Source of the DNA: Desulfatiglandales bacterium | GTDB taxonomy: Bacteria; Desulfobacterota; DSM-4660; Desulfatiglandales; Desulfatiglandaceae | Direction: 5' to 3' | Length of the DNA stretch: 64,000 nt | NCBI GenBank assembly: GCA_963662465.1 | Contig: OY759599.1 | Coordinates: 3,840,001 to 3,904,000, forward strand | Shown here: piece by piece, positions 2,159 through 23,325 of the stretch | How positions within the stretch are numbered: position 1 is the stretch's first letter | Layout of the letters: each line of letters starts with the position of its first letter | Notes under the pieces: model-generated | Told to the model about the DNA's origin: nothing | The model's database searches: none | Seen by the model: only the letters and a program-made list of their open reading frames with translations | Program-made: the position numbers and the translations under genes

Positions 2159-2279
2159 GCCCCATATCTTGTGGCTTCCCCTCTATTAGATGATCCTCAT
2201 CCAATTCAAGCTTTCCTATATGCAACATTCTTTTGATTTCACTGGTAAATAGTGTAAGATTGATCTGTCATCCTTGCAC
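2159..2279 (+). repeat. Degenerate copy of island repeat A plus an 11-6-11 core site
   Basis: CCATATCTTGTGG...CAAGCTTTCCTATAT resembles 7116-7178. GTGTAAGATTG-ATCTGT-CATCCTTGCAC (2252-2279) nearly matches 9298-9325. Confidence 0.6.
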
Positions 2280-2561
2280 GGTTTTGGCGGATGTGCTAAG
2301 AGGGTTGATGCAAGCATTGTGGAATCACACCCGGAGAGACTGAAGATCTTCCCATCTCAATATCTGGTGGTTCAAAAGACGACGATGTTACCTCTGATAC
2401 CGAACCTGGGATAGCATATCGGAAAATAATTTTTTGGCTTTTGACAATTATGGCGATTCCATGTATTCCCAATATATATCGACCATGCCAGACCTGAGAG
2501 AGGGATCTACCGCCCGCGCACGGGGATTGAACAGAAAACTGACACTCGAAAGGAGCTGCCA

Positions 2562-5222
2562 ATGCATAGAATGAGAGTAACGAGATATTTGTTTACCCTG
2601 TTCTTGTTCTTGTTTTTTTCTTTCCTGACACTGCGCCAGCCGCTGTCTTCCCCTACGGATTATGAACTTATGCAGGAAGTCATAAAGAACTTTGTAGAGC
2701 TGACCGGGGATCGAATCGTGGGGAGTGGTTCCTGGATAAAAGGCAGTACTTTTGAACCTGGGGTGTCTGATTTCGATATGCGGCTGTTGACGCGATCAGG
2801 AGATCCGGCTATTCAGATTCAAAAATGGAAAGAAAGCCAAGGGAAATTAGTCGAATTGATTCAAAAGAAATTTGGCTCCCGCGCAAATGCAATCCTTACC
2901 AGAACCAACCTGTATCCCCCCGACCAGATGATGTTTGGTGTCGAAGACCAATCTGAAGCAGCTGCGCGGTTTGCCGAATGGAGGCGCATGCCCAATCTCA
3001 AGAAGGGAGGTAAATTTACCTCCGCCAATGATATTGAAGGGCTGTGGGGGGAGCCAGGAAGGTTGATGCGACAAAAGAAGGAGCTATCCGAAGGCCTTCT
3101 ATTCTATAAAAACCCTGAGACCTTCGAAGCTATTACCAGCTCACCTCGAAGCATTCACAAGGCAGAAGGGATACTCAGGTACAACGCTGAACTCGCAGCC
3201 AAGAGTACCGCGCAGTGCGCCGACATAGGACTTGCATACCTGTCCAAAGGCAACTCTCATGAACTGCTCAAGTACCTCGGACGGACCGACAGGGAATTGC
3301 AGCGTTGCCGGGAGCTGAGTGGAGCGGCTATTGATTGGGATTTCATAAAAAAACTCCAGAAGTTACAGACGGACATCGAACTTGACCCCAAGCTCTTGAA
3401 AGATCCCAAATTTGCGGCCGGGGCCAAGCAGGTTCTGTTGCGCGCCAAATCGGAATCAGCCATCCTGGCCAATTACGCCAAAGCCGGCCCCATGCAGAAG
3501 GCCTATCTGAGGGTTATGCTCGATGGCGTTGCAGCAAAAAACCAGTTGGGGGACCTGATTGATACCATCGGTACACACACCCCGGACTGGGTCAATTTTA
3601 CCAATGCCGTCAAGTTCATGATGATTGCCGCTGGTACGGCCCAAGTCGCCGAGGCCGCCGGGCACGGAGATACGGATGAGGCTGTACGCAGTACTCTGAT
3701 TCTCCTCAAATCGGCCAGTGTCAAAGGACTTTCCTTGTCATCCCTGGTGGCCAGCATTCCCGGATACTCTGCTCTCTTGTTGGCGCAAATGATCGTTGAA
3801 ATCCGCATGGAGGCCAAACAAGCAGGAGTGTTACTGGCAGTGGGCAGGCAAAATCCTTGGGAGCTTATCAGCGGCATCTATAGGGCATGGGGAGCAGGGT
3901 ATGATCCTGATCCCAGGTACGGCAAAGAAAGGACCCTGGGTGACCTGGTGGCTCGATTTCACAGCGAGAGTCGCCTCGAGGCCTGGGTGCTTCACATGTG
4001 CGGCCGGGCGGTTTCTCAGGGTGCAAGGCCTCCGGAATGGGGGCCTAGGGTCAGGGCAACGGTAGAAGATACGAAAAAAGCCATCTTCGACAGGTGCTGG
4101 CCGATTATCCGTTTTGCCTGGCTATGGGAGCGAGAGATGCTGATGGCCGAGTACCTGAACATACGGAGTGAACTGGTTCACACGCCGCTGTTTATCGGCT
4201 ATACCCCACAGAAACCCAAACTCAATGAAAGTGTCATCGCCTCTGTACACAATATGGGGCAACATCTTGAGCAATCCTTATTCCGAATGGAGGTCATCCT
4301 CAAACTGCTTTATGGGAGCAAATCATTTCTTGGTTGGCAGTATTTTTGGGACCCGGAAGGCTCTCATGTCAGCTTGAAGAATCGGCGAAGCTTCATCTTT
4401 CAGACCCTTGGGAACCATCAGGTGGATGTTCGTCTGTCTTTGAAACCTTATCCGGGAGGTAACGATCCCGCGGGATTCCGCTCCGAAAATGTAACCGAAA
4501 CCCGAATCATGCGGGAATACGAACTCGAGGCTTCAGTTTATGTAGAAATAGTCGGCGAAACAGGTGATCAGGTTCAGGTCCCCGATGTGGTCGGTCTGCC
4601 CCAGGCAACCGCTGAAAAGGCAATCAAGGATGTGGGTCTTGAACCGTCTTCAACCACGGAGACGCTCGATACCGCACCGACCGGACAGGTTGTCAAGCAG
4701 AATCCGCTGGGTGGGACAAAGGTTCAGAGCGGAAGCACTGTGAATATTGCAGTTTCATCGGGAGCTAAAGGACTTCCGGTAAGTGGTGTATTTAAACCAC
4801 ACCGCATGGAACCAACAATGCCTGGTCACCCGGCTTATTTTCAAGATTTTCAAATCGAATATACCGTGAAGGGGTTGTATGCCAGGCAAGTCACGGATAC
4901 TATCGGCCAGACTACTGGAAGAAGGTCTTATTCAGGATGCTGTATTGATGGAGATCCGGGGGAATTGAGGGTTTCAGGGACGGCCTCAGGCAGCAACCTT
5001 GGTAATTCTTCACAGTATGCAGGAAGAATTGTTGTAAAAGTTCGACTCTGTTCATCCCCGGAAGAGGTTGTAACCTATCCCATTGCAATCAATACTTCGC
5101 CCCCTTACGCCTTTGATGTTTCGGTACCTGTTCCCTCTGGATGTACACGGGTTTCTTTCAGCATTACAACCGGTATGGCGTGGCCCAATGGGTTTTTCAA
5201 CATTTCCGTAAGCGGAGGGTAA
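2562..5222 (+). CDS. Large exported protein with an N-terminal nucleotidyltransferase-like motif and a PASTA domain
   Basis: 886 aa, hydrophobic N-terminus. GSGSWIKGSTFEPGVSDFD resembles the Pol-beta hGS..DxD motif. VPDVVGLPQATAEKAIKDVGL...GQVVKQNP.GGTKV..GSTVNIAVS is a PASTA domain. Confidence 0.7.
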   Translation: MHRMRVTRYLFTLFLFLFFSFLTLRQPLSSPTDYELMQEVIKNFVELTGDRIVGSGSWIKGSTFEPGVSDFDMRLLTRSGDPAIQIQKWKESQGKLVELIQKKFGSRANAILTRTNLYPPDQMMFGVEDQSEAAARFAEWRRMPNLKKGGKFTSANDIEGLWGEPGRLMRQKKELSEGLLFYKNPETFEAITSSPRSIHKAEGILRYNAELAAKSTAQCADIGLAYLSKGNSHELLKYLGRTDRELQRCRELSGAAIDWDFIKKLQKLQTDIELDPKLLKDPKFAAGAKQVLLRAKSESAILANYAKAGPMQKAYLRVMLDGVAAKNQLGDLIDTIGTHTPDWVNFTNAVKFMMIAAGTAQVAEAAGHGDTDEAVRSTLILLKSASVKGLSLSSLVASIPGYSALLLAQMIVEIRMEAKQAGVLLAVGRQNPWELISGIYRAWGAGYDPDPRYGKERTLGDLVARFHSESRLEAWVLHMCGRAVSQGARPPEWGPRVRATVEDTKKAIFDRCWPIIRFAWLWEREMLMAEYLNIRSELVHTPLFIGYTPQKPKLNESVIASVHNMGQHLEQSLFRMEVILKLLYGSKSFLGWQYFWDPEGSHVSLKNRRSFIFQTLGNHQVDVRLSLKPYPGGNDPAGFRSENVTETRIMREYELEASVYVEIVGETGDQVQVPDVVGLPQATAEKAIKDVGLEPSSTTETLDTAPTGQVVKQNPLGGTKVQSGSTVNIAVSSGAKGLPVSGVFKPHRMEPTMPGHPAYFQDFQIEYTVKGLYARQVTDTIGQTTGRRSYSGCCIDGDPGELRVSGTASGSNLGNSSQYAGRIVVKVRLCSSPEEVVTYPIAINTSPPYAFDVSVPVPSGCTRVSFSITTGMAWPNGFFNISVSGG

Positions 5223-5561
5223 AAAAACCGACATGGCGCTGCAGCGGAGGACAGCGCTACCGAACGTTACAGTAACCGGAAAGTTTTACTCGTTGTACCG
5301 TGTTGAGATAAATACGGTTTAGGCCCTTGCGGCCTGGTGTTGTGTCACAAAAAACAAGAAAATTTCGAACTTCGCAAAAAGGAGTGTCAAAACAGTATTT
5401 TGACATGCCTGGCCTGACTCAGTTTAGAGGTGCCAAAATTTCATTTCGACACTTCTACGGTTGCGGGGGTAGCCCGCCTTAGAGGTCTTATAGCCCTTTG
5501 GTTAATTGCTTTGAACAGTCACCTAAATGGAATGAGTGGAAAACAGACAGGAGATGAGACC

Positions 5562-6407
5562 ATGGTCATCAACACGGATCATACTGCGCGCTATGTGTTT
5601 GTTTGTTTGCTGACAACGCTGTTGTTACTGGTTGTGGTACAGAATGCTATCGCACATGACCTGAACGGAACGTGGGGTTCATCGCAGTACGAGGCGGAGC
5701 TTTCCGTGTTGGGCGAAAGTGTTAAGGGTACCTTCAGATCCCTGTGGTATCCGGAACATGCCCTGGGAACCATTGCAGGAGATCTGAAGGAAAATGCCTT
5801 TGTCGCCGAATGGAGCACACCCGAAGGGGAGGGTCCAGGGGACTTCAGCACAGTGCTTGTCCTTTCAGCCAAAGGAGAAAGCCTTACCGGCTATAGGTGG
5901 AGCGAAGGGTTGTACTTTACAGGCTTTGCCCTGCATCGGGCTGTTGATGGAGAGATTCCAACGCTTTTTGATGAACAGATGTTTTCAGGCCCGGCATCCT
6001 CTGATACGTCTATAAAAAGGATCGATGACCCGCCAGATTTAGACGGCCGACAAGGTCTGGTAGGACAGGCCATTCAGGAGGCCAAAAAGCTCCTTCAACA
6101 AGCCCGCACCCAATGGAACAAAGGGGATCTGGACAGGGCAATAGCAACCCTGCGGGAAGCGAAAAAACTTGATCCGGATAACAAGGAGATCGTCAAGACG
6201 CTCGAAATTATGGAGCGCCAGAAAGATGAATGGCAGAGCCACACGCCCATAACCAAAAATCCACAGCCCACCCCTCAAAGACCTTCTTCTGACGATGGCT
6301 GGGCGCCCATCGGTGGAACAGGCTCCTCTACTACGAGAGATAAAAGTGGGAATTCGGAAGGGGAACGAAGCATACCCAAAGGGCACTCAACGCGCTACGG
6401 GTTTTAG
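5562..6407 (+). CDS. Secreted protein with a TPR-like repeat
   Basis: ATG at 5562 follows RBS-like AGGAGATGAG. Signal peptide ends AIA. TPR-like QARTQWNKGDLDRAIATLREAKKLDPDN. Confidence 0.65.
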   Translation: MVINTDHTARYVFVCLLTTLLLLVVVQNAIAHDLNGTWGSSQYEAELSVLGESVKGTFRSLWYPEHALGTIAGDLKENAFVAEWSTPEGEGPGDFSTVLVLSAKGESLTGYRWSEGLYFTGFALHRAVDGEIPTLFDEQMFSGPASSDTSIKRIDDPPDLDGRQGLVGQAIQEAKKLLQQARTQWNKGDLDRAIATLREAKKLDPDNKEIVKTLEIMERQKDEWQSHTPITKNPQPTPQRPSSDDGWAPIGGTGSSTTRDKSGNSEGERSIPKGHSTRYGF

Positions 6408-6559
6408 AGCTAAAGAAATTACTCCGGGACTGGAGACTGAATATTCCCTGGTTTTGCCTCTGAAAAATGGCCGTTCCCTGCAAACATAAAGATAATATGC
6501 CAGGCCTTGCTATATCCGTCAAAAATAGCGGATACGTCCATTAAATTCAACTGTAGCAA

Positions 6560-7280
6560 ATAATGTGATATCGTTGTTGGGAGGGGGCAGACTGTGAGTT
6601 GATAGGGGCATGAAATTGGCAGTTTTCTGGGTTACATGAGATAGGCATATCTCCAACATACGTCAGGCAGCGAAAAGGTGCCTTATTAGCTCGTTTTCAC
6701 AAAATATGGAAATTATTGGGAGGGACGATTACGGATTACACGGTCCTTTTGACGGCAGGATTGGTCTGTCGCCAATTAAATAAAATCGTCAGGTGGCTTC
6801 TGGCAAATGGTCACTATTTCCCCGCCAGATTTTATCTTGCCCTGAACTAAATATAGTGATTTGTATGTCCCATGAAGTCAACTCCACTATTTGTCTGAAT
6901 CGATATCTCAAACGATTTCTCGCGGTCGAATGTTTGTGATATCATCATTGGGAGGCGGCGGATTCAGGGTTGAGAGATGCATGGAGCTGGAAGTTTTCTG
7001 ATCACACCAGGCTGGGACTATCTCCAACGTACCACAACCAAAGACGACGTTGTGATATGATCCACATATTACATCCGGTCCGTATTTGAAAACCGCTTTC
7101 GACAAATGATTGAGACCCCTACATCTTGTGGTCGCGCCTTTTTCAGATTGTTAATCCAAAAGTGAAGACTTCCTATATGAATATTCTGCCAAATCTGGAG
7201 CTTGGAGGCTTGAAAAAGCACCTGACTTGGAACTTCTGTTTTGGTGTAGCGTAGAGAAGGATGGCAGCTCTAATCTTCAC
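6560..7280 (+). repeat. Composite island repeat block downstream of the integrase (units C, D, A, E)
   Basis: 6708-7028 is a close copy of 21627-21950. 7017-7070 matches 15380-15431. 7116-7178 matches 15478, 15872 and 22039. 7200-7280 resembles 15562-15642. 6560-6668 is a degenerate copy of 6930-7030. Confidence 0.85.
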
Positions 7281-7327
7281 CTCTCCGGGCTGAGACGCTT
7301 CGGCTCTCAACCCGGTTTTGTTTCCAT

Positions 7328-8163
7328 TTATCCATGAATATTGTCAATCCATCTCATGGCCTCCATATCACTGACTTTACCCAAATATCTTTGAGTGGTC
7401 GACAGGTTGGAATGGCGGAGGATGATCTTGCTGACAATCTCCAAAGGGGTTCCAGCCCGGGAGGCAAAAGTTGCGGCATGCCTTCTCAGATCATGCGGCC
7501 TCAATCTGACACCAACCAACTTACCGGCTTTCATCACAACAATCCTCGCAGCGGAGTAGCTTATTGGGAAAATTCTCTCAACAAGTTGAATCTTTTTCTC
7601 GCTGATGTACACCTTGAGTCTGTCTGCTACTTTTTTGGGGATAAAAACAACCTCCATTTCTTTTCCGCTTTTGGGCTCACAGATAAAGATTTTTCTGTCT
7701 TCAACGTCAGCAGGTGTGAGTTTCAGAACTTCTCCTACTCTCATGCCGCCACGCCCCATAAGTTCGAGCATGAGACGGTTTCTGATGTCTTCGGTTCTGA
7801 AGATGATTTCATCCACAACGTCTTTTTCCAAAATCTTCCAATGGATCGGTTTCTGGACTTTGAAAAGTTTCTTCAGTGTAGGGGAATCACAAGGGTTTTG
7901 AATTTTGGGGTCGAAAGAGGTCTTGATAAAATTGAAAAAGGTCGACAGGAGGGAGTAACGGAGCTTTTTCGTAGACTGCTTCGCCTCTTTTGATATCTTT
8001 GTGAGAAAAGGGAGGACATTTTCAGTGGTTACGGATGATAACTCAATGTTGCCGAAATGATGCTCGAATCTGGTTAGAACGAACTCATAGTTTTTCAATG
8101 TGCTTTTTTTTGAATTCATTCTCTGATAGTCAAAAAAAAATTCGTGGCCTCCAACAGTTCCAT
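7328..8163 (-). CDS. Tyrosine recombinase (phage-integrase/XerD-like), with a probable frameshift in a 5' T9 run
   Basis: Catalytic residues present: GMRVGE (R), SGK (K), HDLRRH, LRHSN, TQRY. The best RBS (GGAGG) and ATG at 8163 are out of frame with the main ORF across the T9 at 8132-8140. Confidence 0.85.
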
Positions 8164-8190
8164 AGTGCACCTCCCGTTTTTTGAGGGTTA

Positions 8191-8826
8191 GTCAATGACC
8201 ACCACCAAAGGTGGTGGCTTGAATTAATGCACCTGGAAGGTGCATGGTACCTATTCTATTTGAACAATTTACCTTGCGTCACATCGGCATCTTTATCTTT
8301 ACTATGCTGCCATTTTACATACTTTTTGATCCGCTCTTCATCTAAGCCTACCGTACTCACACAATAGCCTCTCGACCACACATGTTGTCCCCAGTATTTT
8401 TTTCGCAGTTGAGGAAAACGGTCAAATAGTTGTAGAGCCAGTTTCCCCTTCAGGAACCCCATGAACTGCGATATGGCGTATTTCGGAGGGATTGATACGA
8501 CCAGGTGAACATGGTCAATTTGCACATTACCTTCCACCACTTCTACGTCATCTTTTTGATTACATAACCGATATATCTGTTGCATCACATATTTTGCCAC
8601 TTCTTCCTGCAATATTTTGTAGCGATATTTCGGGCAAAACACCACATGGTACTTACACTCATACAAAGAATGTGCTAATTTCTTGAATTGACGTTGACGA
8701 GTCATTATATGCCTCCTGTTAGTTTCGCACCTTCCAGGAAGACATATAATACTCGTCATATTCAATACACCGGTAGAACCTTTTTTTATTCCACTACCAG
8801 AGGTAGTGGTTTACTTTTTAATAAAA
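8191..8826 (-). mobile_element. IS200/IS605-family element (tnpA only)
   Basis: Subterminal hairpins CCACCACCAAAGGTGGTGG (8199-8217) and CCACTACCAGAGGTAGTGG (8791-8809) flank a Y1 transposase. Outer boundaries are approximate. Confidence 0.85.
8256..8705 (-). CDS. tnpA: IS200-family Y1 (HUH) transposase
   Basis: YHVVFCPKYR, HuH motif DHVHL, WSRGYCVSTVG, catalytic Y in KYVKWQ. Confidence 0.92.
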   Translation of the reverse strand: MTRQRQFKKLAHSLYECKYHVVFCPKYRYKILQEEVAKYVMQQIYRLCNQKDDVEVVEGNVQIDHVHLVVSIPPKYAISQFMGFLKGKLALQLFDRFPQLRKKYWGQHVWSRGYCVSTVGLDEERIKKYVKWQHSKDKDADVTQGKLFK

Positions 8827-8923
8827 AATGAATTGACCTCAACATATCCTATTGGTTAAAGTTACGACTTCTGAGTTAAATATTCAATTTGAGTAAGGTT
8901 GTTGGCGGTCAAGATTACTACAT

Positions 8924-9196
8924 ATTGGTAAAGCTGAACTGGTCGGGCAAATGGCTAAAGATGCAGCCATCAGCAAATCCGCTGCCAATGCTGTACTAAA
9001 TTCATTTATCGACAGTATTACGAAAGAGCTGAAGAAAAAGGATGGAAAAGTAACTGTGATTGGATTTGGTACATTCTCAAAAGTCCACCGAAAAGCTCGG
9101 AAAGGTCGAAACCCGAGTACCGGAGAACCGATCAAGATCAAGGCATCTAATGCCGTTAAATTTAAAGCAGGGAAGAAGCTGAAAGAGGCGGTTTAG
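8924..9196 (+). CDS. hup: HU family DNA-binding protein; canonical start codon missing
   Basis: KAELVGQMAKDAAISK...GFGTFSKVHRKARKGRNPSTGEPIKI...KFKAGKKLKEAV. No ATG precedes KAEL (ATT at 8924); the first ATG is at 8951. Confidence 0.8.
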   Translation: MGKAELVGQMAKDAAISKSAANAVLNSFIDSITKELKKKDGKVTVIGFGTFSKVHRKARKGRNPSTGEPIKIKASNAVKFKAGKKLKEAV

Positions 9197-9297
9197 GATT
9201 TCGCAGGGAAACTGCATACATTTTCAGCGGTCGACTTGATTTACCCCATGGGGAATGTCGATCTACCGCATCGTGTTTTATCCTACAGAAGCAGATG

Positions 9298-9682
9298 GTG
9301 TAAGATTGATCTGGCATTCTTGCACGATTTTGGTGGTGTTGGGGTGAAGACTCATGCACGTACTCTTTTTCTGTGACCGGATAAGCGGAAACCAAATTGA
9401 CCACAATATGTTGTTGTGGTAGGATTTTACGGTTTAGGTTCAGGAACGTGAAGGCGATTTCAGATATGTAAGGGCATATCAACACTTCAGAGACACTGTT
9501 TTTTTGGGAATATTCTCAATTTATGTTGCGATGAAAAAGCTGACCACAACATCTGGGATATCGTCCAAACGGCTTTGTTTCCAGATACTGTCTGTCAAAA
9601 GCTATTCCCAAGGAAATTTGAAGTATTGATCTGGCTGTCCTTTAAAATTCGGACCGCTATGCTACGGAAGTAGCAATGCACG
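9298..9682 (+). repeat. Island repeat block (units B, F, G)
   Basis: 9298-9325 is an 11-6-11 inverted core. 9354-9390 resembles 12036-12072. 9527-9682 resembles 11887-12043 and 19987-20130 (GCGATGAAAAAGCTGACCACAACAT...GAAGTATTGATCT...CTATGCT). Confidence 0.8.
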
Positions 9683-9841
9683 AATTTTTGAATTGAAAGT
9701 GCTGACAAGTATTGAAAGATTCGGTTTTTCCGTTGACTTGTTTTAATCGATGAGCGGTTGAAAATAATAGTGTGACGACTTGGCCTTTGGCGGTGTACAA
9801 AGGGGCATTACAGCTTTAAAACATTTCAGAAAGAGGAAGAA

Positions 9842-12199: not shown

Positions 12200-13366
12200 T
12201 TGCGAAAACTCAATTTATTTCTGCAAGAAGAAGACATAGAAGCATTTCGATTCGGCGAAGGGCTAATCCTTTCCCGTCCACAGAAGCTTTACGTTCTCAA
12301 CGCCACTGCCACCTTTTTATGGGTGGACCTTCAAGAAGGATATACATTAGAAGAGGCCAACAAGCGGCAAGCCCAACGTTTTGGACTCTTGTCGGCTGAA
12401 CTTCTTCCAGATAGCGAGCACATCTACAAACAGTGGGCTTTTGAAGGCCTCATTCCAGGCTCCCCCCATCGTTTGGCTGAAACCAATAATTTACTGGTCA
12501 AATCTGAATTTGATGTTCGTTTTCGAGCAGAATTCTTAAAACCTGCTTCTCCGATTACCAGAACATACCGTTTCCCTGAAAATATGATAACATTGGGCTT
12601 TCAGAACCCAGCACTGGAAAATCTCATTCACCCGGCTTTCGCTCACCTAGAGGAAAAGGATATAACTCCCGATCGTGCCAATATTGAATTGAGAATGGAA
12701 AACGAGGCTGTCATAATTCACTGTGATGGGAAAGAGCCACTTTCCACATTTGATTTGCGTGAAGCCCGTACCAATGCGCTAAATCACATTTTGGATCACA
12801 CATCCGGAAATTCCGATTGGTGTGCACTGCTTCACTCCGCCGCTTTAGCTCGTGGAAAGGAGGCAATTGTTTTAGCTGGAGCCTGTCAAAAGGGTAAAAC
12901 GACTTTGACTGCCTATCTCATTCAAAGGGGTTGGGAATATCTCAGCGAGGATATAACTGCAATCGATGTCCAAATGGGCGCTGTATATGGTCTCCCTTCA
13001 GCGTTGAGCCTAAAACAAGGTAGCTGGGACCTTCTTTCTGCTGATTTTCCTGAAATTGAAACCTTAACCGTTTATGAAAAGTTTGGTTCCAAAATTCGTT
13101 ATTTGCCTCCACCAAAGTACGAAATCGGCCCACGATCCTTTGGATTTCTTTTTGCTGTCGATTTTGATCCAAATGCAACACACTCTTGCCAAGAATTACC
13201 TCCCTTAGAGACTTTGGAAAGTCTCGTCAGTGGCGATTCGTGGATAAGTTCAGCTTCAGATCATCTTATGTTTTTCTTGGGGCTACTCGAAAATGTTCCC
13301 GCTTATCGGTTGACGTATAAGACATTGGATCAGGCTCTATCTTCTATCGAAGAGATAATTTCATGA
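12200..13366 (+). CDS. PqqD/RRE-like domain fused to an HPr-kinase-related kinase
   Basis: N-terminal KLYVLNATATFLWVDLQEG is PqqD-like. LLHSAAL, P-loop GACQKGKTT and YLSEDI are HprK-like motifs. TTG start after TAGGA. Confidence 0.75.
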   Translation: MRKLNLFLQEEDIEAFRFGEGLILSRPQKLYVLNATATFLWVDLQEGYTLEEANKRQAQRFGLLSAELLPDSEHIYKQWAFEGLIPGSPHRLAETNNLLVKSEFDVRFRAEFLKPASPITRTYRFPENMITLGFQNPALENLIHPAFAHLEEKDITPDRANIELRMENEAVIIHCDGKEPLSTFDLREARTNALNHILDHTSGNSDWCALLHSAALARGKEAIVLAGACQKGKTTLTAYLIQRGWEYLSEDITAIDVQMGAVYGLPSALSLKQGSWDLLSADFPEIETLTVYEKFGSKIRYLPPPKYEIGPRSFGFLFAVDFDPNATHSCQELPPLETLESLVSGDSWISSASDHLMFFLGLLENVPAYRLTYKTLDQALSSIEEIIS

Positions 13367-14472
13367 AAGACCGTGAAGCCCACCTTTTTATCGGACTTTG
13401 CTTATCTGCCCTAGTGGAATCACATCGTTCGCCAGTGCTTGCTGCGAAGTTAAAAAGCGGCCAGATCAACTGGCCCTTAATTGTTACAATCTCTAGTCGG
13501 CACCTGGTTACACCCGCCCTCTTTGCCTCGTTTCAAGTCCATGGGCTAACGGAAATACTTGAATCAGAGGTTCGAAACTATCTGTCAATCATTCACCAAC
13601 TGAATCTAGCTCGGAACAAAAATATTTTAAAGGAAGTGCATGATGTTGTATTCAAACTCAACGATGTCGGGGTTCAGCCAACCCTCATTAAGGGGGCGGC
13701 ACATCTAACCAGCGGGCTTTATAAAGATCCTGGAGCCCGAATTATGAGCGACATTGATATGCTCGTTCCCGAAAGCCAGCTGATGTCTTGTGTGGGAGCC
13801 CTTAAATCATTGGGATATGGTAGCAAAAACCCATTTGATGGTGAATTGAAAGGCCATCATTTTCCAAGATTGATTCACCCAAATCGAGAGGTAGGAATAG
13901 AACTTCACCGCTGGGCTACATCCAAAAATGCAATTAAAGCTGAAGAGATTTTTGGAGCATCTAGCCTTTGGGAGATAAACGGCAATAAATTCAGAATTCC
14001 CTCCCGTGAACACGCTCTCATGATTAATATCATACATGCCCATACGGGAGCGCTTAGATTTCCAGGCCAGATAAATTTCAGGGCTAACATGGACCATGCC
14101 CTTTTGATTCAAGCGCCTGGTGAAAAAGTCGATTGGGCTCGAATATCCGAGGCACTTTGCTCCGTCAGTGAAAAAAAAGCCATGGAAGCTTTTTTAGACA
14201 CCAACTATTGGCTAATGGCAGTTCCTCTTCCGCTACCATTGAGAACAGGCTTGCAGCTATATTTAGGACGTCTTGGGAGGAAAGTTTGCGTCACAAACCA
14301 TTATTTTGAGAAGGGAATTCTGTTGACGTTATTTTTCATTCATTATATAAATTCTCTAATGTTACGGTTTAAAGACCTTGGTCTTAATGAATTTCTTTTG
14401 CGATTAACCAGCCCCAAAAAATGGAAAAATCAAGCAACTGCTTTAAAGAATGTAGTAAAATCGTTAAAGTGA
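13363..14472 (+). CDS. Nucleotidyltransferase family protein (NTP_transf_5-like)
   Basis: LIKGAAH..LY.DPGARIMSDIDMLV and IELH motifs; ATGA overlap with the upstream kinase. Confidence 0.85.
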   Translation: MKDREAHLFIGLCLSALVESHRSPVLAAKLKSGQINWPLIVTISSRHLVTPALFASFQVHGLTEILESEVRNYLSIIHQLNLARNKNILKEVHDVVFKLNDVGVQPTLIKGAAHLTSGLYKDPGARIMSDIDMLVPESQLMSCVGALKSLGYGSKNPFDGELKGHHFPRLIHPNREVGIELHRWATSKNAIKAEEIFGASSLWEINGNKFRIPSREHALMINIIHAHTGALRFPGQINFRANMDHALLIQAPGEKVDWARISEALCSVSEKKAMEAFLDTNYWLMAVPLPLPLRTGLQLYLGRLGRKVCVTNHYFEKGILLTLFFIHYINSLMLRFKDLGLNEFLLRLTSPKKWKNQATALKNVVKSLK

Positions 14473-14499
14473 CCTGCGAGTTCTAACGGAGGATTAGCT

Positions 14500-14703
14500 T
14501 TGGAAAGAAAAGATCGAGAGTCGTTTGGTGAATCGAATTTTCAAGAAAAGGAAGATCAAAAAGCATCTGAGGGCCTTGACCGCCGTGGCGCTTTCCAGGT
14601 AGCTGGAAAGATGGCGCTCTATACTGCTCCTGCAATGTTGGCGTTGTTAGTTGCAAAAAAGGCTCATGCTCACGGTGAATTTGTTCTAACGCTAATCCAT
14701 TGA
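14500..14703 (+). CDS. Small twin-arginine-like peptide 1, C-terminus altered by a MITE insertion
   Basis: RBS GGAGG plus TTG start; LDRRGAFQVAGKMALYTAPAMLALLVAKKAHA. Removing the MITE restores the ending AHA-SP-stop (AGTCCATAA at 14785-14793). Confidence 0.75.
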   Translation: MERKDRESFGESNFQEKEDQKASEGLDRRGAFQVAGKMALYTAPAMLALLVAKKAHAHGEFVLTLIH

Positions 14704-14774
14704 TTTGTTTGAATTGATGTGTCCTTCATAAGGTTTTGATATCAAAGGTTTACAAATAGAACAAATTTGCCCTG
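14671..14774. mobile_element. 104-bp MITE (CA...TG ends, 10-bp TSD)
   Basis: Imperfect TIRs CACGGTGAATTTGTTCTA / CAGGGCAAATTTGTTCTA. Flanks GGCTCATGCT and GTCTCATGCT. Reverse complement of 54482-54585. Confidence 0.9.
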
Positions 14775-14992
14775 GTCTCATGCTAGTCCATAATGAAGAT
14801 TTCTAAACAGAATTTTTTCATCCCAATCTGATTTTATATCGGCCTCTGTCAGATTTTCAACCGATGCTTGTTGGATTCCCTCAAGGTTTTTTCACACGGG
14901 AACATGACGGTGTTTGTTTTTTTGAGAGTTTTTTTACACAGAAATCATAATTCTTTAAAAAAATCAAAAAACCAAAGGAGGAGGAAATAGCT

Positions 14993-15175
14993 TTGGAAAA
15001 AAAAGATATAGAGTCGGTTGGTGAATCGAATTCCCAAGAAACAGAAGATCACAAAGCATCTGAGGGCCTTGACCGTCGTGGGGCTTTCCAGGTAGCTGGA
15101 AAGATGGCGCTTTATACTGCTCCTGCAATGTTGGCATTATTAGTTGCAAAAAAAGCTCATGCTGGTTCCGAATAG
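14993..15175 (+). CDS. Small twin-arginine-like peptide 2 (paralogue of peptide 1)
   Basis: RBS AAGGAGGAGG plus TTG start; 60 aa, near-identical to peptide 1, ending AHAGSE. Confidence 0.8.
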   Translation: MEKKDIESVGESNSQETEDHKASEGLDRRGAFQVAGKMALYTAPAMLALLVAKKAHAGSE

Positions 15176-15339
15176 AATTCTTTCATCAGATTTTGATTTT
15201 TTCTTTCAAAATCGATAGATGGGTTGTTTGAAATCTTTACAACGCCAAGAGGTAGCCTTCCGTTGTAGGCGATTAAGTTCCGGCCTCACTTAGCGGTTCT
15301 CAAACGAGACGACAGCGCCTTTCGAATATTGGGCGGTCA

Positions 15340-15945
15340 TACCATATATTGTGGTTCCCACATTTTTGGAGAAACCTGCACTATCTCCAACGTACCACAA
15401 CCAAAGACGACGTTGTGATATGATCCACATATCCCAATCGGACAAGACTGAAGTTGCGATTTCACTCATTATCCAACACCACTACATATTGTGGTCACGC
15501 CATTTTCAGATTGTTAATCCAAAAGTGAAGACTTCCTATCATTGTTTTGTTGGACCTGTAACCCGGAGGCCTGAAAAAAGCAGCTGCCTGGCACGAAGTT
15601 TTTCGGTGCAGCATGGAGAAGGATGGCAATTCAATTCTTCCGTTTTGAAACTGAAGGCACGCCCGAAAATCATCGATGTTAACTCTTCCTGAAAAGAATC
15701 AAAAATCATCAAGAGTCGCCCGTTAACGTCTTGCGGCTACCCCAAGATGCGGGGGTTGCCATCCTTATAAAAATTTTTGGCATAACTATCACAATATTCC
15801 AATAGGTTGTGATAAGAGCTCAATATCTCATCCGAGCAAAATTGAATTTGCCGTTTCACTCCTTGTCCAGTACCACTATATCTTGTGGTCGAGACCTTTT
15901 CAGACTGTTAATCCAAAAGTGAAGGTTACGTAATATTATGTTGCA
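15340..15945 (+). repeat. Island repeat block with two tandem copies of unit A
   Basis: 15380-15540 matches 7017-7178. 15562-15642 matches unit E. 15806-15926 is a second D/A copy followed by TTATGTTGCAT. Confidence 0.85.
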
Positions 15946-16236: not shown

Positions 16237-16621
16237 TTTAAAAGATTAAATGATGGACAGGATTGTCATTGCACGAGAAAACACCAATAAAAAGGGGTAA
16301 AGGGGTCTGAAGGAACTTGTTCAGACGCCGTCTCCTCATCCTGTCCATCCAAAAAATCCTGTTCATCGTGCTCAAAACAGTGGAGAGGCCAACAATGCCG
16401 GATAACCCTTTGCCCGTTTTTGAAATCTATAAAATCCGGACATCAGCGGCGGCCACAAGGCGGGACAATTAAAAAAAACGCGCTCCCACACGCTGCGTGG
16501 GGATGGATGAAAGTCAGGCCTTGGCCAGCCTGCCCCGCTTTTTGTCCGTAGCCATTTTTTGTGTATGTTATGAGTTGTTGATGGTACGATGTGTTCCTCA
16601 TAATAGAGCGTGTTGTTCTGC
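16237..16621 (+). repeat. 385-bp direct repeat H, copy 1
   Basis: Near-identical to 23522-23906. Contains GATGGACAGGAT/ATCCTGTCCATC inverted motifs and a REP-like TCCCACACGCTGCGTGGGGA. Confidence 0.9.
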
Positions 16622-16796
16622 CCCTTAACGTCGTCCTTTTTGGGACTCATATCCTAATCTTGAAGTCAAAATGTATGATCTGGATCGAAACTGCAAAGAA
16701 ATGGCGGAATTTTTCAGTTATTGCTAGAGAGGGTAAAAGTGGGGTATGGTACAGTTGCATTTGAGGTGAAATCCCGAAAAAAACACTGATATCATC

Positions 16797-17033
16797 ATGG
16801 ATTTTGAAATTGCAGAAAATATTTTAAGAATTGAAACCATCGCTGTCGGATCTTCAATTCGTGATTTAAAGCGTTTGATCAGAGTGTACGACAATGGGCG
16901 GTGGCGCAAGTTGAAAGGGTTTGCAACGGTACGTTTGATGGACGGATCTTTTCGTAAACCAGAGATCCATTGGTATGAGGCTCATGGAATAGGGAGAAAG
17001 GAATTTAAATTGAAACTCCCGTTTCTGGATTAG
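16797..17033 (+). CDS. Small conserved hypothetical protein, first of a TA-like pair
   Basis: 78 aa; IETIAVGSSIRDL.RL...Y..GRWRKLKG.ATVRL.DG.....EIHWYEAHGIGRKE is a recognisable small-protein pattern. Confidence 0.7.
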   Translation: MDFEIAENILRIETIAVGSSIRDLKRLIRVYDNGRWRKLKGFATVRLMDGSFRKPEIHWYEAHGIGRKEFKLKLPFLD

Positions 17034-17045
17034 AGGGGGACAGCC

Positions 17046-17297
17046 ATGGAAGAGAAGGTCGCGCTGACACAGGGATTTGTGCTTTGCCTCAACAACCAGG
17101 GATACGAAGCTTCTTTGGAGGTGGGGAAGTTGTATCGTTTTATTGAGGACAAGGATGCGGCATCGCACGGATATGCGCGTGTGGTCGATGAAAGCGGGGA
17201 AGATTATGCCTACTCCAAAAACCGGTTTTTTCATCTCCAGTTACCAAAGACTGTTGAAGAAGTATTGATGTCTTTTTCTGAACAATGTGTGGCATAA
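17046..17297 (+). CDS. Small conserved hypothetical protein, second of a TA-like pair
   Basis: 83 aa, RBS GAGGGGG; FVLCLNNQGYEASLE..KLY...D..A...G..RVVDESGEDY.Y. Confidence 0.7.
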   Translation: MEEKVALTQGFVLCLNNQGYEASLEVGKLYRFIEDKDAASHGYARVVDESGEDYAYSKNRFFHLQLPKTVEEVLMSFSEQCVA

Positions 17298-17369
17298 ATC
17301 TATAATTTACCACGCAAGAGCATGTGGGTCCATTATGGGCGTGAGGCAGATGGATCAAGAAAACAGAAA

Positions 17370-18419
17370 ATGAAGCAGCGAATTGAGTGGCTCGACAATT
17401 TAAGGGCAATTGCCATATTTTTTGTGGTGCTGGGGCATACCGTCGGTCTTCCCGGGCATGTGGAAAAATTGATTTTTTCTTTTCATATGCCCATTTTCTT
17501 CTGGATTTCAGGGCTTTTTGCCAGGGAAAGCATTCGCGATGAAACTTTTTGGGGTTTCATTGCCAAACGGTGGCGAAAACGCCTCATCCCCTACCTTTCT
17601 TTTTCCGTCATCAGCTATGTGGCCTGGTTTTGTCTGTTCAGACACTTCGGGAGCCAGGCGGAGATGAATATCAGCCCCATTCGGCCGCTCATCGGTTTTT
17701 TTTACGGCAACGGCATCAACGACTGGATGGTGACCAATACCGTATTGTGGTTTTTTCTGTGTTTGTTTGTTACGGAGATTTTTTTCTACTTTGTGATCAA
17801 GGTCCCTTCAAAGCTTTGGATGGTGCTGTTGCTGGCGGGGTTTTCCATTGTGGGATATCTGGATGTTTACTACAACCCGCCCGATGGTTTCAGACTGCCC
17901 TGGGACATGGATATTGCGCTTACAACGGTTGTTTTCTATGGCGCCGGGTATCTTTCAAAAGGGTACGTACTCGGAAATAAAAAATCCACCCCCTGGCGGT
18001 GGCTCGTCATGCTCCTCAGCCTTGTCATTTATGCGGTTTTCAGCCTCTTGAATCGGAAAGTCGCCCTGGTGGCGGGTGTGTACGGCAATTATTTTTATTT
18101 TTATGCGGCTGCCATAGCGGGCATCTGCTTCTGGATGGAGCTGGCCTACATGATTCCGACGTCACGGTTTTTTTCCAGGATCGGCCGGAACACCCTCACC
18201 ATATTCTCTCTGCACCTGCTGGTATTTCCTTTTATTACGGCCGTTTTGGTCTACGGATTGAAGATGCCCTCCCAATTGAAGTTCGAGTCCGCATCCCTCT
18301 CCCTGGCCTACGCGGTCATCAGCATCCTGGTGTTGCTGCCCATATCCGATCTGATCAATCGATATGTCCCCTTCATTCTAGGGGAGTCCCGAAAACCGGC
18401 GTCACAACTAACCCTTTAA
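17370..18419 (+). CDS. Acyltransferase 3 family membrane O-acyltransferase
   Basis: RIEWLDNLRAIAIFFVVLGH, FHMPIFFWISG, LWFFLCLF, IGRNTLTIF..H; multiple TM helices. Confidence 0.9.
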   Translation: MKQRIEWLDNLRAIAIFFVVLGHTVGLPGHVEKLIFSFHMPIFFWISGLFARESIRDETFWGFIAKRWRKRLIPYLSFSVISYVAWFCLFRHFGSQAEMNISPIRPLIGFFYGNGINDWMVTNTVLWFFLCLFVTEIFFYFVIKVPSKLWMVLLLAGFSIVGYLDVYYNPPDGFRLPWDMDIALTTVVFYGAGYLSKGYVLGNKKSTPWRWLVMLLSLVIYAVFSLLNRKVALVAGVYGNYFYFYAAAIAGICFWMELAYMIPTSRFFSRIGRNTLTIFSLHLLVFPFITAVLVYGLKMPSQLKFESASLSLAYAVISILVLLPISDLINRYVPFILGESRKPASQLTL

Positions 18420-18444
18420 CCTATAATTCCAATTGAGGTTCAAA

Positions 18445-19642
18445 ATGTTTATAATTCATCTTATGTTCACCCTGGTATTCCTGTATATAATCATCACAAC
18501 CCTTTACCTCGTCATCCTGACCGTTGCCGCCTATTGTTTCACGAAGAAGCAAGGATCTATTCCCGGACCCTTTTCCATAGCGCTCATCATCCCCGCTCAC
18601 AACGAGGCCCTTGAAATCGGGAAGACCATTGAAAATGTCAAGGGCTGCGGTTATCCTGAAGATGCCTACGGTATTGTGGTGATTGCCGATAACTGCAACG
18701 ATGAAACCGCTTCCCTGGCCCGGTCCGCGGGGGCTGTGGTGGTGGAGCGGACGGACATGGCAAACCGCGGGAAAGGCCAGGCCCTGGACTGGTTTTTCAA
18801 GAACCACGCCGACATTTATGGACGCTACGATGCCGTGGCCATCATGGATGCGGATACCCTTATGCATGGATTTTCTCTCTGAAATATCATCGAGTCTTTC
18901 TTCTCCGGGGGTGAACGCGATGCAGGGTTATTACGGGGTTTCCAATCCAGAGGACAACTGGCGTACGGCATTGTCTTCCGCCGCCCTGAATGTATTTCAC
19001 CATATTCGTCCCGCCGGCCGCAACCGCATCGGGGGGACGGCAGGGCTCAAGGGAAACGGTATGGCCTTTAAAACCGACATCCTCAAAACATACGGCTGGC
19101 CCGCTTATTCTATTGTGGAAGATATTGAATTTTCCATGATCCTGCTTCACGATGGCATCATTGTGCATTACAACCCGGACGCCATCGTTTATGGAGAGAT
19201 GGCCACGGAAAAGAAACAGGCCGAAACCCAGCGAAAGCGCTGGGAAGGGGGGCGTTTCGAGGTACTCAAGAAATACGCTTCGCCGCTGCTCAAAATGTGG
19301 TTCAAGGACAAAAAAAAGGTGCAATACCTGGATGGTTTCATGGAGTTGTTTACCCCGCCCCTGTCACTTCTGGTGATAGGACAGATCCTTTTTTTTGGGG
19401 TGTCGGCCTTTATGTATCCGGCCCTGTTTAGACTTTCCATCTACTGCCTGTTGGGAACCGCGTTCTATGTCTTTTCGGGATTGATCCTCAAGAAAGCGCC
19501 CCTTTATGTCTGGAAATGCCTTTTTTCGGCCCCTTTCTTTATCCTCTGGAAAATCCCCATCTATCTGAAAGTCGTAAAAAAGGGCAACCAGAACACCTGG
19601 GAGAGGACTCAGCGAAAATCCGAACTGGAGAAGAAAGAGTGA
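18445..19642 (+). pseudogene. GT2 glycosyltransferase, frameshifted
   Basis: IPAHNE, ADNC.D.T, GKGQAL and DAD lie in one frame; EDIEF and QRKRW lie in another. The break is near 18865-18870. Confidence 0.8.
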
Positions 19643-19655
19643 TAGGCCATTCGAT

Positions 19656-19799
19656 TTCGCAACTCCGGAACTGCTTTGGCGCGTGCTGACCGCAAAACGG
19701 TGGGTGTTACTCAAGGCTCTCTGTGGAGCAGGCCCTGTATCAATCCGCGAAGCTGCTTGACGTGTTGGGCGCGATGTTAAGGCAGTCCACAGCGATGTT
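19656..19799 (+). pseudogene. Fragment of a wHTH antitoxin-like regulator (HVO_A0114-like)
   Basis: Translates as FATPELLWRVLTAKRWVLLKALCGAGPVSIREAA*RVGRDVKAVHSDV, with an internal TGA at 19758 and no start. Confidence 0.6.
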
Positions 19800-19959
19800 A
19801 AGTACCCGAACAATAGTTTTTTGGTATGAACTTAAGCAAAATTAATTCGGAATTCTCTGCCAATGTTTTTCAAAACATTTTCAACTTCATGGTCTAAATC
19901 TTTTAAAGAGTTATAGGCTGAGAAAAGCAACCATTTATATTTGACAAATCGCCAAAGAA

Positions 19960-20130
19960 TGGGGATACTCAATATATCACACGTTGGCGATGAAAAGGCT
20001 GACCACAACATCTGGATGTCATTCAAACGTCTTTGGCTCCATACTGTCAAGAGCTATTCCAGGGAAACGTGAAGTATTGATCTCGCAGTCTTGCGAAATT
20101 CTGACCACTATGCTCCGGAAGTATCATGTA
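19960..20130 (+). repeat. Island repeat G copy
   Basis: GGGGATA-CTCAAT-ATATCAC...GACCACAACATCTGG...GTGAAGTATTGATCTCGCAGT. Confidence 0.85.
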
Positions 20131-20279
20131 CAAAAGTCCGCGTTTAGAGGACCACCGAAAACATGTAAGATTGGATGTGTAAACATGAATCGGCCAATTT
20201 CATGACCACCGGAAAGATGGGTTAATGAGTTATTCACTTGTTTCAATGTCAACCTTTAACGCAAAAGGGGTGAGGAAAG

Positions 20280-21605
20280 ATGAGAATAAAGATCGCGGGT
20301 ATTGTGCTGTTTTTCTGTTTTGTGGTAACCGGTCTTTTTGGGGCTTCCATGGTCTTGTCATCTGATGACATAATTAATCCGCAGGGAAGCGAGACAGGGG
20401 ATAACGTCTGGTATGGGGAAGCTGCATGCGATAGCATCACGAGCGGAGCAGGTAACTCCTTTTTCGGAAGGGCCGCCGGGTATTCGAATACCACCGGTAA
20501 CGAGAACTCCTTTTTCGGAAGGGCTGCCGGTCTTATTAACACCACTGGAAACAACAATTCCTTTTTCGGAACAGATGCGGGGCATGAGAACAAAGACGGA
20601 CACTCCAACTCCTTTTTCGGATGGAAAGCCGGACATAACAACACTTCAGGATACTCAAACTCCTTTTTCGGGCTAAACGCCGGTCTTAGTAACACCACCG
20701 GAGACAACAATTCCTTTTTTGGAAGGGCCGCCGGGTATTCGAATACCACCGCAGACAACAATTCTTTTTTCGGGCAGGGCGCCGGTATCAATAACACTGG
20801 AGGAAGCGATAACGCCTTTTTCGGGCAGGATGCAGGGTGGAATAATACTAGCGCCAATTATAATACCTTTATCGGACAGGAAGCCGGACAAAGTGTAGAT
20901 AATCCCCTGACCGGAGGTAGCAACGTCTTTGTTGGACAGCGCACTGGATGGAAGAACACCAGCGGGCATTCCAATACTTTTCTCGGAAGAAATGCCGGTG
21001 CGTTTAACACAGAGGGATCCAGCAATACCTTTGTAGGGAGGGCTTCGGGATACCACAACCTGACTGGAGATCTTAATGTGTTCCTGGGTTATAATTCGGG
21101 ATATAATGAAACCGGATCCAACAAGCTCTATATTGCTAATACCGGCACTATTAACCCTCTTATCTGGGGTGATTTTAACACCAGAAACCTGGTGATAAAC
21201 GGAAACTTCCGGGCTATTGCAGTTACAAGCCCTTCGGATTTACGCTTAAAAAGGAATATTAAACCATTGGAATCATCCCTAGACAAAATATCCAATCTTC
21301 AGGGTGTGACCTATGAGTGGAATCGAGAAGACTATCCCGATGCGGGAATGACCGAGGGCAAACAGATCGGCCTGGTTGCACAAGACGTTGAAAAAGAGTT
21401 CCCTGAACTGGTCTCTGAGGACAAGGACGGCTATAAGGGTTTGTCCTATTCAAAATTGACGGCCGTGCTCGTTGAAGCTGTTAAGGAGTTGAAGACTGAG
21501 AATCAGAGTCAGAAAAAACTGATAGAGGCGCAACGGAACCAATTTAAGAAACAGCAGGCCGAAATTGAAGAATTACGTTCGATGATAAAAGAATTGAAGA
21601 GCTGA
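20280..21605 (+). CDS. Secreted tail-fibre/adhesin-like protein with C-terminal peptidase S74 intramolecular chaperone domain
   Basis: Signal peptide; 17-aa repeats NSFFG..AG..NTTG; SDLRLKRNIKPL...LQGVTYEW...GLVAQDVE..FPELV; C-terminal coiled coil. Confidence 0.85.
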   Translation: MRIKIAGIVLFFCFVVTGLFGASMVLSSDDIINPQGSETGDNVWYGEAACDSITSGAGNSFFGRAAGYSNTTGNENSFFGRAAGLINTTGNNNSFFGTDAGHENKDGHSNSFFGWKAGHNNTSGYSNSFFGLNAGLSNTTGDNNSFFGRAAGYSNTTADNNSFFGQGAGINNTGGSDNAFFGQDAGWNNTSANYNTFIGQEAGQSVDNPLTGGSNVFVGQRTGWKNTSGHSNTFLGRNAGAFNTEGSSNTFVGRASGYHNLTGDLNVFLGYNSGYNETGSNKLYIANTGTINPLIWGDFNTRNLVINGNFRAIAVTSPSDLRLKRNIKPLESSLDKISNLQGVTYEWNREDYPDAGMTEGKQIGLVAQDVEKEFPELVSEDKDGYKGLSYSKLTAVLVEAVKELKTENQSQKKLIEAQRNQFKKQQAEIEELRSMIKELKS

Positions 21606-21626
21606 TTCATATTATGTCTGCAAAAG

Positions 21627-22112
21627 AAATATGGGGAGGAACGATTACGGATTACACTGTCCTTTTGACGCCAGGATTGGCCTGTCGCCAATTAAATTTA
21701 ATCGTCAGGTGGCTCTGGTATGGGGGTCACCACCTTCCCACCAGTTTTGTCTTGCCCTGAACCAAATATAGTGATTTGTATGTCCCATGAGGTCAACTCC
21801 ACTATTTGTCTGAATCGATATCTCAAACGATTTCTCGCGGTCGAATGTTTGTGATATCATCATTGGGATTGGGAGGGCGGCGGATTCAGGGTTGAGAGAT
21901 GCATGGAACTGGAAATTTTCTGATCACACCAGGCTGGGACTATCTCCAACATATCTCAGGCTCGGTTTCAAATGAGAAACGGACAGGATATTCAGAAAAA
22001 GTGTAGCACATTGACCCCATGAACCCAGAATGGGAGAACCACTACATCTTGTGGTCGCGTCCTTTTCAAACTGATAATCCAAAAGTGAAGGTTTCCTATA
22101 TTTATGTTTACT
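21627..22112 (+). repeat. Island repeat block (unit C plus unit A)
   Basis: 21627-21950 is a copy of 6708-7028. 22039-22101 is unit A followed by TTATGTTTACT. Confidence 0.85.
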
Positions 22113-23306: not shown

Positions 23307-23325
23307 CAGCAAACCCTATTTAATG

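Follow-up and report, generated by a model that had tools for sequence, protein, structure and literature searches.

The window analysed here is a 64,000-nt stretch of the chromosome of a sulfate-reducing Desulfatiglandales bacterium from sediment (G000:C1:3840001-3904000, G000 being the complete 8.16-Mb genome that holds it), in which unrelated genes alternate with long repeats around a gene for a small tyrosine recombinase. The standard example of a bacterial platform that gathers unrelated genes in co-oriented arrays is the integron, and the locus raises the question of whether a second platform of that kind exists. Our analysis indicates that it probably belongs to a site-specific, integron-like but non-integron gene-cassette system, which would be driven by the small recombinase. 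Below, G010 denotes a close relative of G000 (most blocks shared by the two are 90–97% identical), G073 a genome from another genus, and L001–L119 the loci fetched from relatives.

Anatomy of the junctions

Self-comparison of the window bore out the positions of three repeat units, A, C and G, that a preliminary description had named. A-type copies were located at 7115, 15478, 15872 and 22038, G units at 9505-9682, 11867-12043 and 19960-20131 (77–80% identical), and C units at 6711-7031 and 21627-21953 (329 bp, 90%). The A copy placed at 2160 is present as well, in a diverged form (box GCCCCATATCTTGTGG, X spacer at 2216) that is fused directly to a previously unnamed unit, H, which is also found after the HU gene at 9298. 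The distance of about 88 bp, described as constant, was confirmed: the palindromic box begins 87, 87 and 88 nt past TATCTCCAAC at 7019, 15382 and 21941, respectively. A, C and G, which had been described as shuffled units, are together with H parts of one compound junction. The suggestion that H is an inverted copy of C-A was rejected, since the pairwise scores were within or close to those of shuffles.

The core of the junction, designated M, is 28 bp long (GTGTAAGATTG-ATCTGT-CAGCCTTGCAC) and consists of inverted 11-bp arms around 6 bp (11-6-11). It is flanked by the exchange points X (CTATAT, −47), Z (ATGCAC, +45) and T (TCCAAC, at the end of C); the arms of Z and T are similar to those of other sites. 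A 16-bp palindromic box lies 91–93 nt downstream of M, A-H junctions carry an additional mirror box upstream of M, and the G type has this layout in a shorter form. All parts can be seen in the empty compound junction at 2159..2371 (+ strand), with box1 at 2159-2174, the X spacer CTATAT at 2216-2221, M (GTGTAAGATTG-ATCTGT-CATCCTTGCAC) at 2252-2279, the Z spacer at 2308-2313 and box2 at 2355-2370. Accessory boxes are also known from cer and psi sites, the likeness being the 11-6-11 core and the palindromic protein-binding boxes about 90 bp away.

The core-only matrix gave 66 matches in G000 and L001–L119 and 0 in reversed sequence; therefore, the core repeats are not due to chance. The genome of G000 contains 35 M and 25 T cores (60), grouped in 25 clusters, and neighbouring cores are co-oriented in 34 of 35 cases. 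The repeats extend beyond this locus, with 75 backbone matches across the genome. Nor is there one platform around one recombinase: besides the 25 clusters, the recombinase itself is a nested module present in three copies. Scattering of the repeats independently of the integrase, which had been named as the case that would speak against capture, is half true, as they are dispersed yet clustered and co-oriented, with a modest link to the enzyme.

Homology among A copies ends at CTATAT (X), and the partner then varies: a 30-nt segment followed by M, the recombinase tail, a recombinase-in-trio (RIT)-type end, and others. A linkage analysis covered the 40 of 59 G000 and G010 junctions in which box2 is complete. 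Identity in neighbouring segments was correlated at 0.18–0.24 at X, 0.05–0.07 at M and 0.09–0.14 at Z, and the correlation peaked at 0.55–0.64 between these sites. All annotated cargo open reading frames (ORFs) of 2562-23306 are on the + strand and the recombinase is on the − strand, as had been described. The next ORF is co-oriented with the junction in 28 of 34 cases in G000 and 17 of 23 in G010. A crude signal-peptide filter was passed by 24 of 57 cargo ORFs vs. 223 of 1539 background ORFs.

The small recombinase

The gene at 7328..8163 (− strand) encodes a two-domain Xer-like tyrosine recombinase of about 278–280 aa that has SAM-like and catalytic domains only. The catalytic residues R144, K167, H226, R229, H253 and Y262 (280-aa open-frame numbering) are all present. 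The ATG at 8163, preceded by GGAGG, loses the frame at a 9-base homopolymer (8132-8140). This state is common in the family. Among 81 matches surveyed, four were unscored (three cut, one without a start). Of the 77 scored genes, 66 have their start out of frame, the shift being +1 in 55, −1 in 9 and different in 2, and in 65 of the 66 there is an A or T run of at least 7 at the 5′ end; the remaining 11 are in frame, 7 of them with no A/T run of that length. The run consists of A near codon 19 in most relatives and of T near codon 9 in the clade of the window, and the frameshifted state recurs over the family tree (a quick protein tree). Expression of the recombinase is predicted to be low and to depend on slippage at this run.

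According to the profile searches, the enzyme is not IntI, as had been proposed. The IntI models scored far below cut-off (TIGR02249, 38.6 bits vs. 265; NF011946, 21.8 vs. 435), and no integron integrase was found among the 10 PDB sequence matches of the recombinase. The distance between K167 and H226 is 59 aa, which we take to be too short for the IntI insertion. The Xer models were also below cut-off (XerA, 117.8 vs. 220; XerC, 59.5 vs. 335; XerD, 57.8 vs. 330), and the gene is multi-copy and patchy, unlike the single conserved chromosomal XerC, XerD or XerA. The nearest solved structures are archaeal XerA and XerD (PDB 4A8E, 5HXY, 1A0P; ~20–24% identity). An AlphaFold model (pLDDT 74, pTM 0.48) gave low TM-scores that indicate the superfamily only, and the ESM Atlas returned generic names only. 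The IntDes subgroup (PMC8138268) has an arm-binding domain and a Tyr in place of the first catalytic His; membership was rejected on these characters, since the recombinase has SAM-like and catalytic domains only and H226 is invariant. The family comprises 4206 clusters at E ≤ 1e-10 among 4866 candidates, and the closest relatives of the recombinase are from Desulfobacteraceae, Desulfatiglandales and other Desulfobacterota.

Three near-identical copies of the gene (95–96%), each with a truncated HU gene, were found in G000, together with fragments. In addition, a 5.7-kb block (G000:C1:2838505-2844281) interrupts a recombinase copy, and the same block (96–97%) is located in a junction array of G010 (L092). 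The HU gene noted beside the window recombinase does follow it; it is 5′-truncated, however, and an IS200/IS605 copy separates the recombinase from its own upstream region. This insertion (8188..8817, − strand; tnpA 8256-8765; 99–100% identical to three other copies) is present in the window copy only. HU as a family-wide partner of the recombinase was rejected, there being no HU beside the recombinase among the relatives' loci listed. Intact HU genes ~80% identical to the truncated one are located in junction-bearing regions of the genome G004 (L108 18366-18608 and L114 564-806), which makes HU a possible recurrent cassette and, perhaps, a bending cofactor.

A very improbable explanation sees in the repeats the remains of a mobile-element and promoter family that has decayed, the cargo being shuffled by RecA or gene conversion between copies that are alike. 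Many block ends do lie away from sites and many recombinase copies are broken. On the other hand, switches between unrelated partners fall at 6-bp spacers, the spacings of 91–93 and 96–97 nt are fixed across diverged segments, and the frameshift recurs across the tree.

A recombinase-HU unit nested in the junction

The site-specific cassette system preferred here is supported by the position of the recombinase gene itself. The recombinase and HU genes form a unit that runs from X (7179) to Z (9359) and measures 1551 bp without the insertion sequence (IS). It comprises the 3′ tail of the recombinase (7179..7327, − strand; with a hairpin past the stop codon and, at ~7255-7282, a motif like M in inverted orientation), its coding region, the upstream region (8818..8924, − strand), which ends in an X-like half-site GTCAAGATTAC-TACATA at 8908-8924, and the HU gene (8925..9196, + strand), which is without its first codons. 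To the left lies an A unit (7029..7178, +; box 7116-7131, X left arm and spacer CTATAT at 7173-7178), and to the right, the other half of the filled junction (9263..9425, +; degenerate X, M 9298-9325, Z 9354-9359, box2 9401-9416).

The window copy and the genomic copy called Y agree at 19–20 of every 20 bases until M+39 and at 13–17 beyond; agreement with the copy called X falls to 7–11 past +40, and there is a step in identity at site X. Identity among the three copies is lost at Z. A 6650-bp contig from another study contains the unit without the IS, and its match ends at 9360. In locus L001 the recombinase tail ends at CTATAT, the X spacer, and in G004 a recombinase tail ends at a T site. 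At two places in G010, the flanks of that G004 recombinase abut each other with the gene missing; this concerns one enzyme (present twice) among 81 examined. Gene-less forms of the flanks of the window recombinase at the junctions at 15640, 22176 and 6.59 Mb were unsupported, as 191, 414 and 31 of 500 shuffles, respectively, scored as high.

Exchange of cargo between arrays and genomes

Cargo modules are found in more than one array, two of them with both ends at the sites. A 1.5-kb cassette (G000 2846428-2844912) is 99.2% identical, from the Z start to the X end, to a module in a different array of G010. A 562-aa cargo gene has three copies in G010, two of which are 97% identical from Z to T and the third truncated on the left. 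The cassette at G000 6578018-6580627 is present in another array of G010, where its T end is sharp. At an orthologous locus of G000 and G010, the flank is 98% identical until M+45 and is followed by ~4 kb vs. 38 kb of different content. A break at +36 to +49 was observed in 8 of 19 M-anchored pairs (about six independent events). The genome G073 has 9 co-oriented junctions within 37 kb. Comparison thus establishes the anatomy of the junction, the co-orientation, the module ends at Z, X and T and the differing content at orthologous loci. The proposed analogy with integrons is supported on this comparative level, as modules with site ends recur, orthologous arrays differ and the enzyme is not IntI.

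These data bear on an explanation without cassettes, which we regard as unlikely. The X-to-Z unit would be a small tyrosine-recombinase transposon, autonomous with the gene and a ~95-bp miniature without it, that prefers sites beside earlier copies; the cargo would be a passenger between two copies, accumulated by tandem accretion. In line with this, most of the 15 G073 junction matches listed share mainly TATAT...ATGCAA with variable flanks, gene-less forms exist, and tandem full copies occur in L004, L020 and L030. Common cargo modules, however, start at Z and end at X or T, and hence exclude the miniature; M is also an exchange point, the cargo has its own conserved ends (box and promoter), and the orientation is strict. 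Tandem accretion at one att site is known from cis-mobilizable elements (CIMEs), where islands grow head to tail by repeated site-specific integration. That process differs from the present case, which has no fixed tRNA target, 25 clusters per genome and cargo exchanged between clusters.

RIT elements at the junction spacers

A gene-less mini-RIT element at 11385..11867 (+ strand; ends TTATGTTG...CAACATAA, CTCAAT on both sides) has five copies that are 97–99% identical, and mini-RIT ends are located at both CTCAAT and CTATAT spacers. A RIT trio element of G000 (trio 3491109-3493976; element with accessory genes 3489340-3494164), which is located one base after a Z spacer, has matching ends. 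These positions show that tyrosine-recombinase elements target the junction spacers, and RIT enzymes may do some of the shuffling. Related RIT pieces were seen near other junction clusters. The window unit is not itself of the RIT type, having one recombinase and not three adjacent genes.

The junctions could instead be exchanged by RIT recombinases or by host XerC/D, as in pdif modules, with the small recombinase a parasite inserting there; this appears rather improbable. The RIT and mini-RIT positions agree with it, as do the 58 tyrosine-recombinase matches in G000 and the genome of G010, which has at least 28 junctions and recombinase fragments only. Against it, cargo and junction ends are without the RIT end TTATGTTG, and the recombinase's own flanks occur as gene-less junctions. 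A pattern search with the dif consensus gave three weak matches and no clear dif site, and the M arms do not resemble that consensus.

A NrdR-like box and a promoter-like site

According to PMC13584703, the NrdR box has C4, A6, A8, T9, T11 and G13 in 16 bp, with two boxes 15–16 bp apart. All six positions are matched at +90 to +94 of 36 of 59 M cores vs. 2 of 5000 random windows. A partner box at 31/32 or 42/43 bp was found at 0 of the 36 junction boxes; the class II ribonucleotide reductase promoter of G000 does have paired boxes. The junction box is therefore NrdR-like, not a canonical site, and binding of NrdR to it would be a prediction from the six positions. A scan with the box alone was not discriminating (86 matches vs. 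46 in the reversed genome).

Box2 occupies the spacer of a promoter-like site, TTGACC-17-TAGGAT (9397-9425), which faces the cargo. At least 4 of 6 matches in both hexamers were present at 19 of 40 junctions vs. 22 of 20,000 random positions. The distal part of the junction may thus serve as a promoter for the cargo. Separately, an identical 16-mer, CGACCACATGTAGGGG, lies on either strand just upstream of diverse ORFs at eleven sites of G000:C1 (e.g., 348840 and 843228) and represents another repeat family with a NrdR-like box.

Proposed mechanism and points that weigh against it

In the cassette system proposed here, T, X, M and Z follow one another in the compound junction as Xer-type half-site pairs, with two arms around a 6-bp spacer in every one. 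The modules between the sites are of any size, from multi-kb cargo to 45-bp empty segments, and include the recombinase gene itself. The small recombinase, made at a low level via slippage on its 5′ homopolymer run, would act in trans from the three copies, excising modules as circles and inserting them at other junctions, apparently without a need for identical spacers. The distal junction part would supply the promoter of the incoming cargo, with the NrdR-type box in the promoter spacer.

Of 75 genomes of the family, 31 contain matches to a junction model, and the link of the junctions to the enzyme is the first of several points that weigh against this mechanism. A recombinase match was found in 10 of 16 genomes with at least 5 junction matches, 6 of 15 with 1–4 and 13 of 44 with none; most of these genomes are drafts, kin are not independent, and a per-genome count of 28 stands for at least 28. 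Among 99 family recombinase matches, only one has a hit of the G000/G010 core profile within 900 nt. The recombinase's own upstream flank is repeated in 15 of 52 loci and its downstream flank in 16 of 52. Flank searches in the genomes of L004 and L008 yielded mostly tandem copies and unrelated repeats; in the genome of L063, the upstream flank is repeated ~15 times. Because the enzyme-junction link is modest, it seems that the junction sequence is specific to each subfamily, or that many family members act without arrays.

Further points concern the breakpoints. The trough at M in the linkage analysis arises partly from the low variance of the conserved arms, and the step at site X between the window copy and copy Y is not sharp. 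Eleven of the 19 M-anchored pairs, which are not independent, have no break at Z, and a break at T is seen in only 1 of 10 T-anchored pairs. The cassette 6578018-6580627 has a blurred Z end, and no core bounds the left side of the window's serine-hydrolase cargo where it occurs in G010. Of the 271 ends of blocks shared by G010 and G000, only 7 are near a core, in a test that is uninformative. RIT elements use the same spacers as the junctions. Finally, neither an excised circle nor recombination was observed in the sequence data, which consist of contigs whose joints are confounded by paralogous repeats.

Relation to known systems

The system resembles integrons (IntI, attI, attC and Pc, with CALINs; PMC8618304) in its tyrosine recombinase, tandem co-oriented cargo and site-bounded modules, a promoter-like site facing the cargo and arrays without a nearby enzyme. 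It differs from them in that the enzyme is not IntI, the junctions are multi-core and ~170–220 bp long instead of attC, the enzyme gene is nested in the junction, and the cargo has its own long flanks and is often 1–5 kb or multi-gene. There is also no single attI beside intI, and cargo lies on both sides of the enzyme, which has three copies. A strict attC scan detected no site in the window, nor any in L054, the positive control. With looser settings, there were 3 weak matches at 11 window stops vs. 3 at 9 control stops, so that the control failed in both scans. L054 itself contains at 6200-14922 an apparently true integron array with attC-like sites recognized by eye. A family recombinase is inserted there, and ~150-bp copies of the recombinase upstream region lie at several cassette ends.

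The pdif modules of Acinetobacter plasmids (PMC6449649 and PMC13141974) are shuffled between 28-bp Xer-type sites; the junctions share with them this 11-6-11 geometry and the targeting of the sites by other elements. Unlike these modules, the junctions are chromosomal, all in one orientation and have several cores each, with arms unlike the dif consensus; they would be served by a dedicated recombinase family and not by host XerC/D. RIT elements (PMC3414803 and PMC5737581) are similarly tyrosine-recombinase elements with gene-less miniatures, but they have three recombinases instead of one small enzyme, have different ends and appear here as visitors. Archaeal XerA and XerC/D are likewise simple two-domain recombinases without an arm-binding domain, and the present enzyme is unlike them in being below all Xer cut-offs and in having a multi-copy, mobile and frameshifted gene. 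No description of such a system was found in a full-text literature that was mostly without subscription journals and without supplements.

Cargo genes and other features of the window

In this section, the cargo genes, the junction segments, the acyltransferase-GT2 copy (16650..19800) and the 385-bp repeat (16237..16621) are on the + strand. The first cargo gene (2562..5222) encodes an 886-aa protein with a PASTA domain and a signal-peptide-like N-terminus, and the second (5430..6407) a 325-aa protein with a weak TPR match. A partial C unit (6564..6668) ending in a T site (spacer TCCAAC, 6652-6657) follows, and the sequence after it resembles the tail of another recombinase subtype. The complete C unit (6711..7035) is a cassette 3′ flank that ends in a T site (spacer 7023-7028).

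Beyond the recombinase, a G-type junction variant (9505..9690; box near 9544, M spacer 9629) starts with a RIT-type left end and precedes the gene of a secreted serine hydrolase (9842..11209; PF00144), which lies at another locus in G010. The mini-RIT is followed by a G-type junction (11874..12100; box 11903, M spacer 11991) and a cargo operon (12200..15175) encoding an HprK-related kinase-like protein, an NTP_transf_5 protein and two precursor-like ORFs of 60–67 aa (14500 and 14993). This looks like a small peptide-modification operon. The two short ORFs are near-identical and have a leader-like motif of the RR-x-F type. A 106-bp miniature inverted-repeat transposable element (MITE) with imperfect terminal inverted repeats, of which the genome has 14 identical copies, is present at 14670-14775, inside the 3′ end of the first peptide gene, and at 54481-54586.

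The compound segment at 15339..15942 contains a box (15339), a T site (15386-15391), an A unit (box 15479, X 15536) and a second A unit (box 15873). Another G-type junction (19960..20131) has an empty CTCAAT target at 19968, a box at 20003 and the M spacer at 20080. Next to it is the gene of a 441-aa repeat protein with a Peptidase_S74 domain (20280..21605), with 51-bp tandem coding repeats at 20432-20837; further copies of its 3′ part and of the C unit are found in other G000 and G004 arrays. A segment of C, T and A (21627..22112; C unit, T site 21945-21950, A with box 22039 and X 22096-22101) precedes the gene of a PEP-CTERM protein with a choice-of-anchor K domain (22533..23306). PEP-CTERM tail sequences (23202-23367 and 54619-55746) are repeated within the window, in inverted orientation.

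The segment 16650..19800 differs from an ordinary cassette in being a second copy of a chromosomal acyltransferase-GT2 locus (94% to G000 3832670-3834961), which is located 25 kb upstream. GT2 is frameshifted in the window copy, which has a two-gene insert at 16797-17297. This insert is 641 bp long, its two genes belong to no Pfam family, and it is possibly a toxin-antitoxin pair. The block 16650-19800 is also present on a contig from another study. A 385-bp direct repeat of a separate family (16237..16621; 98% to 23522-23906) brackets, with its second copy, a 7.3-kb block and contains the 5′ end of ORF 23876; it includes a repetitive extragenic palindromic (REP)-like repeat with 41 matches in the genome.

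The acyltransferase-GT2 locus on one side and a phosphopantetheinyl transferase gene on the other form the edges of the island. They are adjacent in the genome G005, and in G010 ~60 kb with none of the window's cargo separate GT2 from the next common gene; the region is therefore a variable island. At its right end (24205-27177) lies the gene of a TOTE conflict-system protein with AEP primase, helicase and PLD domains, which is also found in G010 and in the genome G006 and is missing at the G005 site. A tRNA search of the window found none, and an Rfam scan of 1-30000 gave a single sub-threshold match (E 0.31), indicating no known RNA there.

Implications

If the cassette reading holds, the integron-like design would have evolved at least twice, with a different enzyme and site. 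Given its defined sites and the homologues that are in frame by nature, the system lends itself to a test of the central question and could provide a new and compact recombinase tool. A more far-reaching version, which we put forward as tentative and rather doubtful, is that of a second, independently evolved cassette-capture system across sulfate reducers, with a slippage-controlled Xer-like recombinase, double-stranded multi-core junctions, dozens of arrays, a promoter per junction and single NrdR boxes that are paired in trans across the synapse. Such trans-paired boxes would tie recombination or cargo expression to the deoxynucleoside triphosphate state of the cell. If real, the cassette system would escape tools designed to find integrons, and it would account for the hypervariable islands that encode surface and secreted proteins in anaerobic bacteria of sediments.

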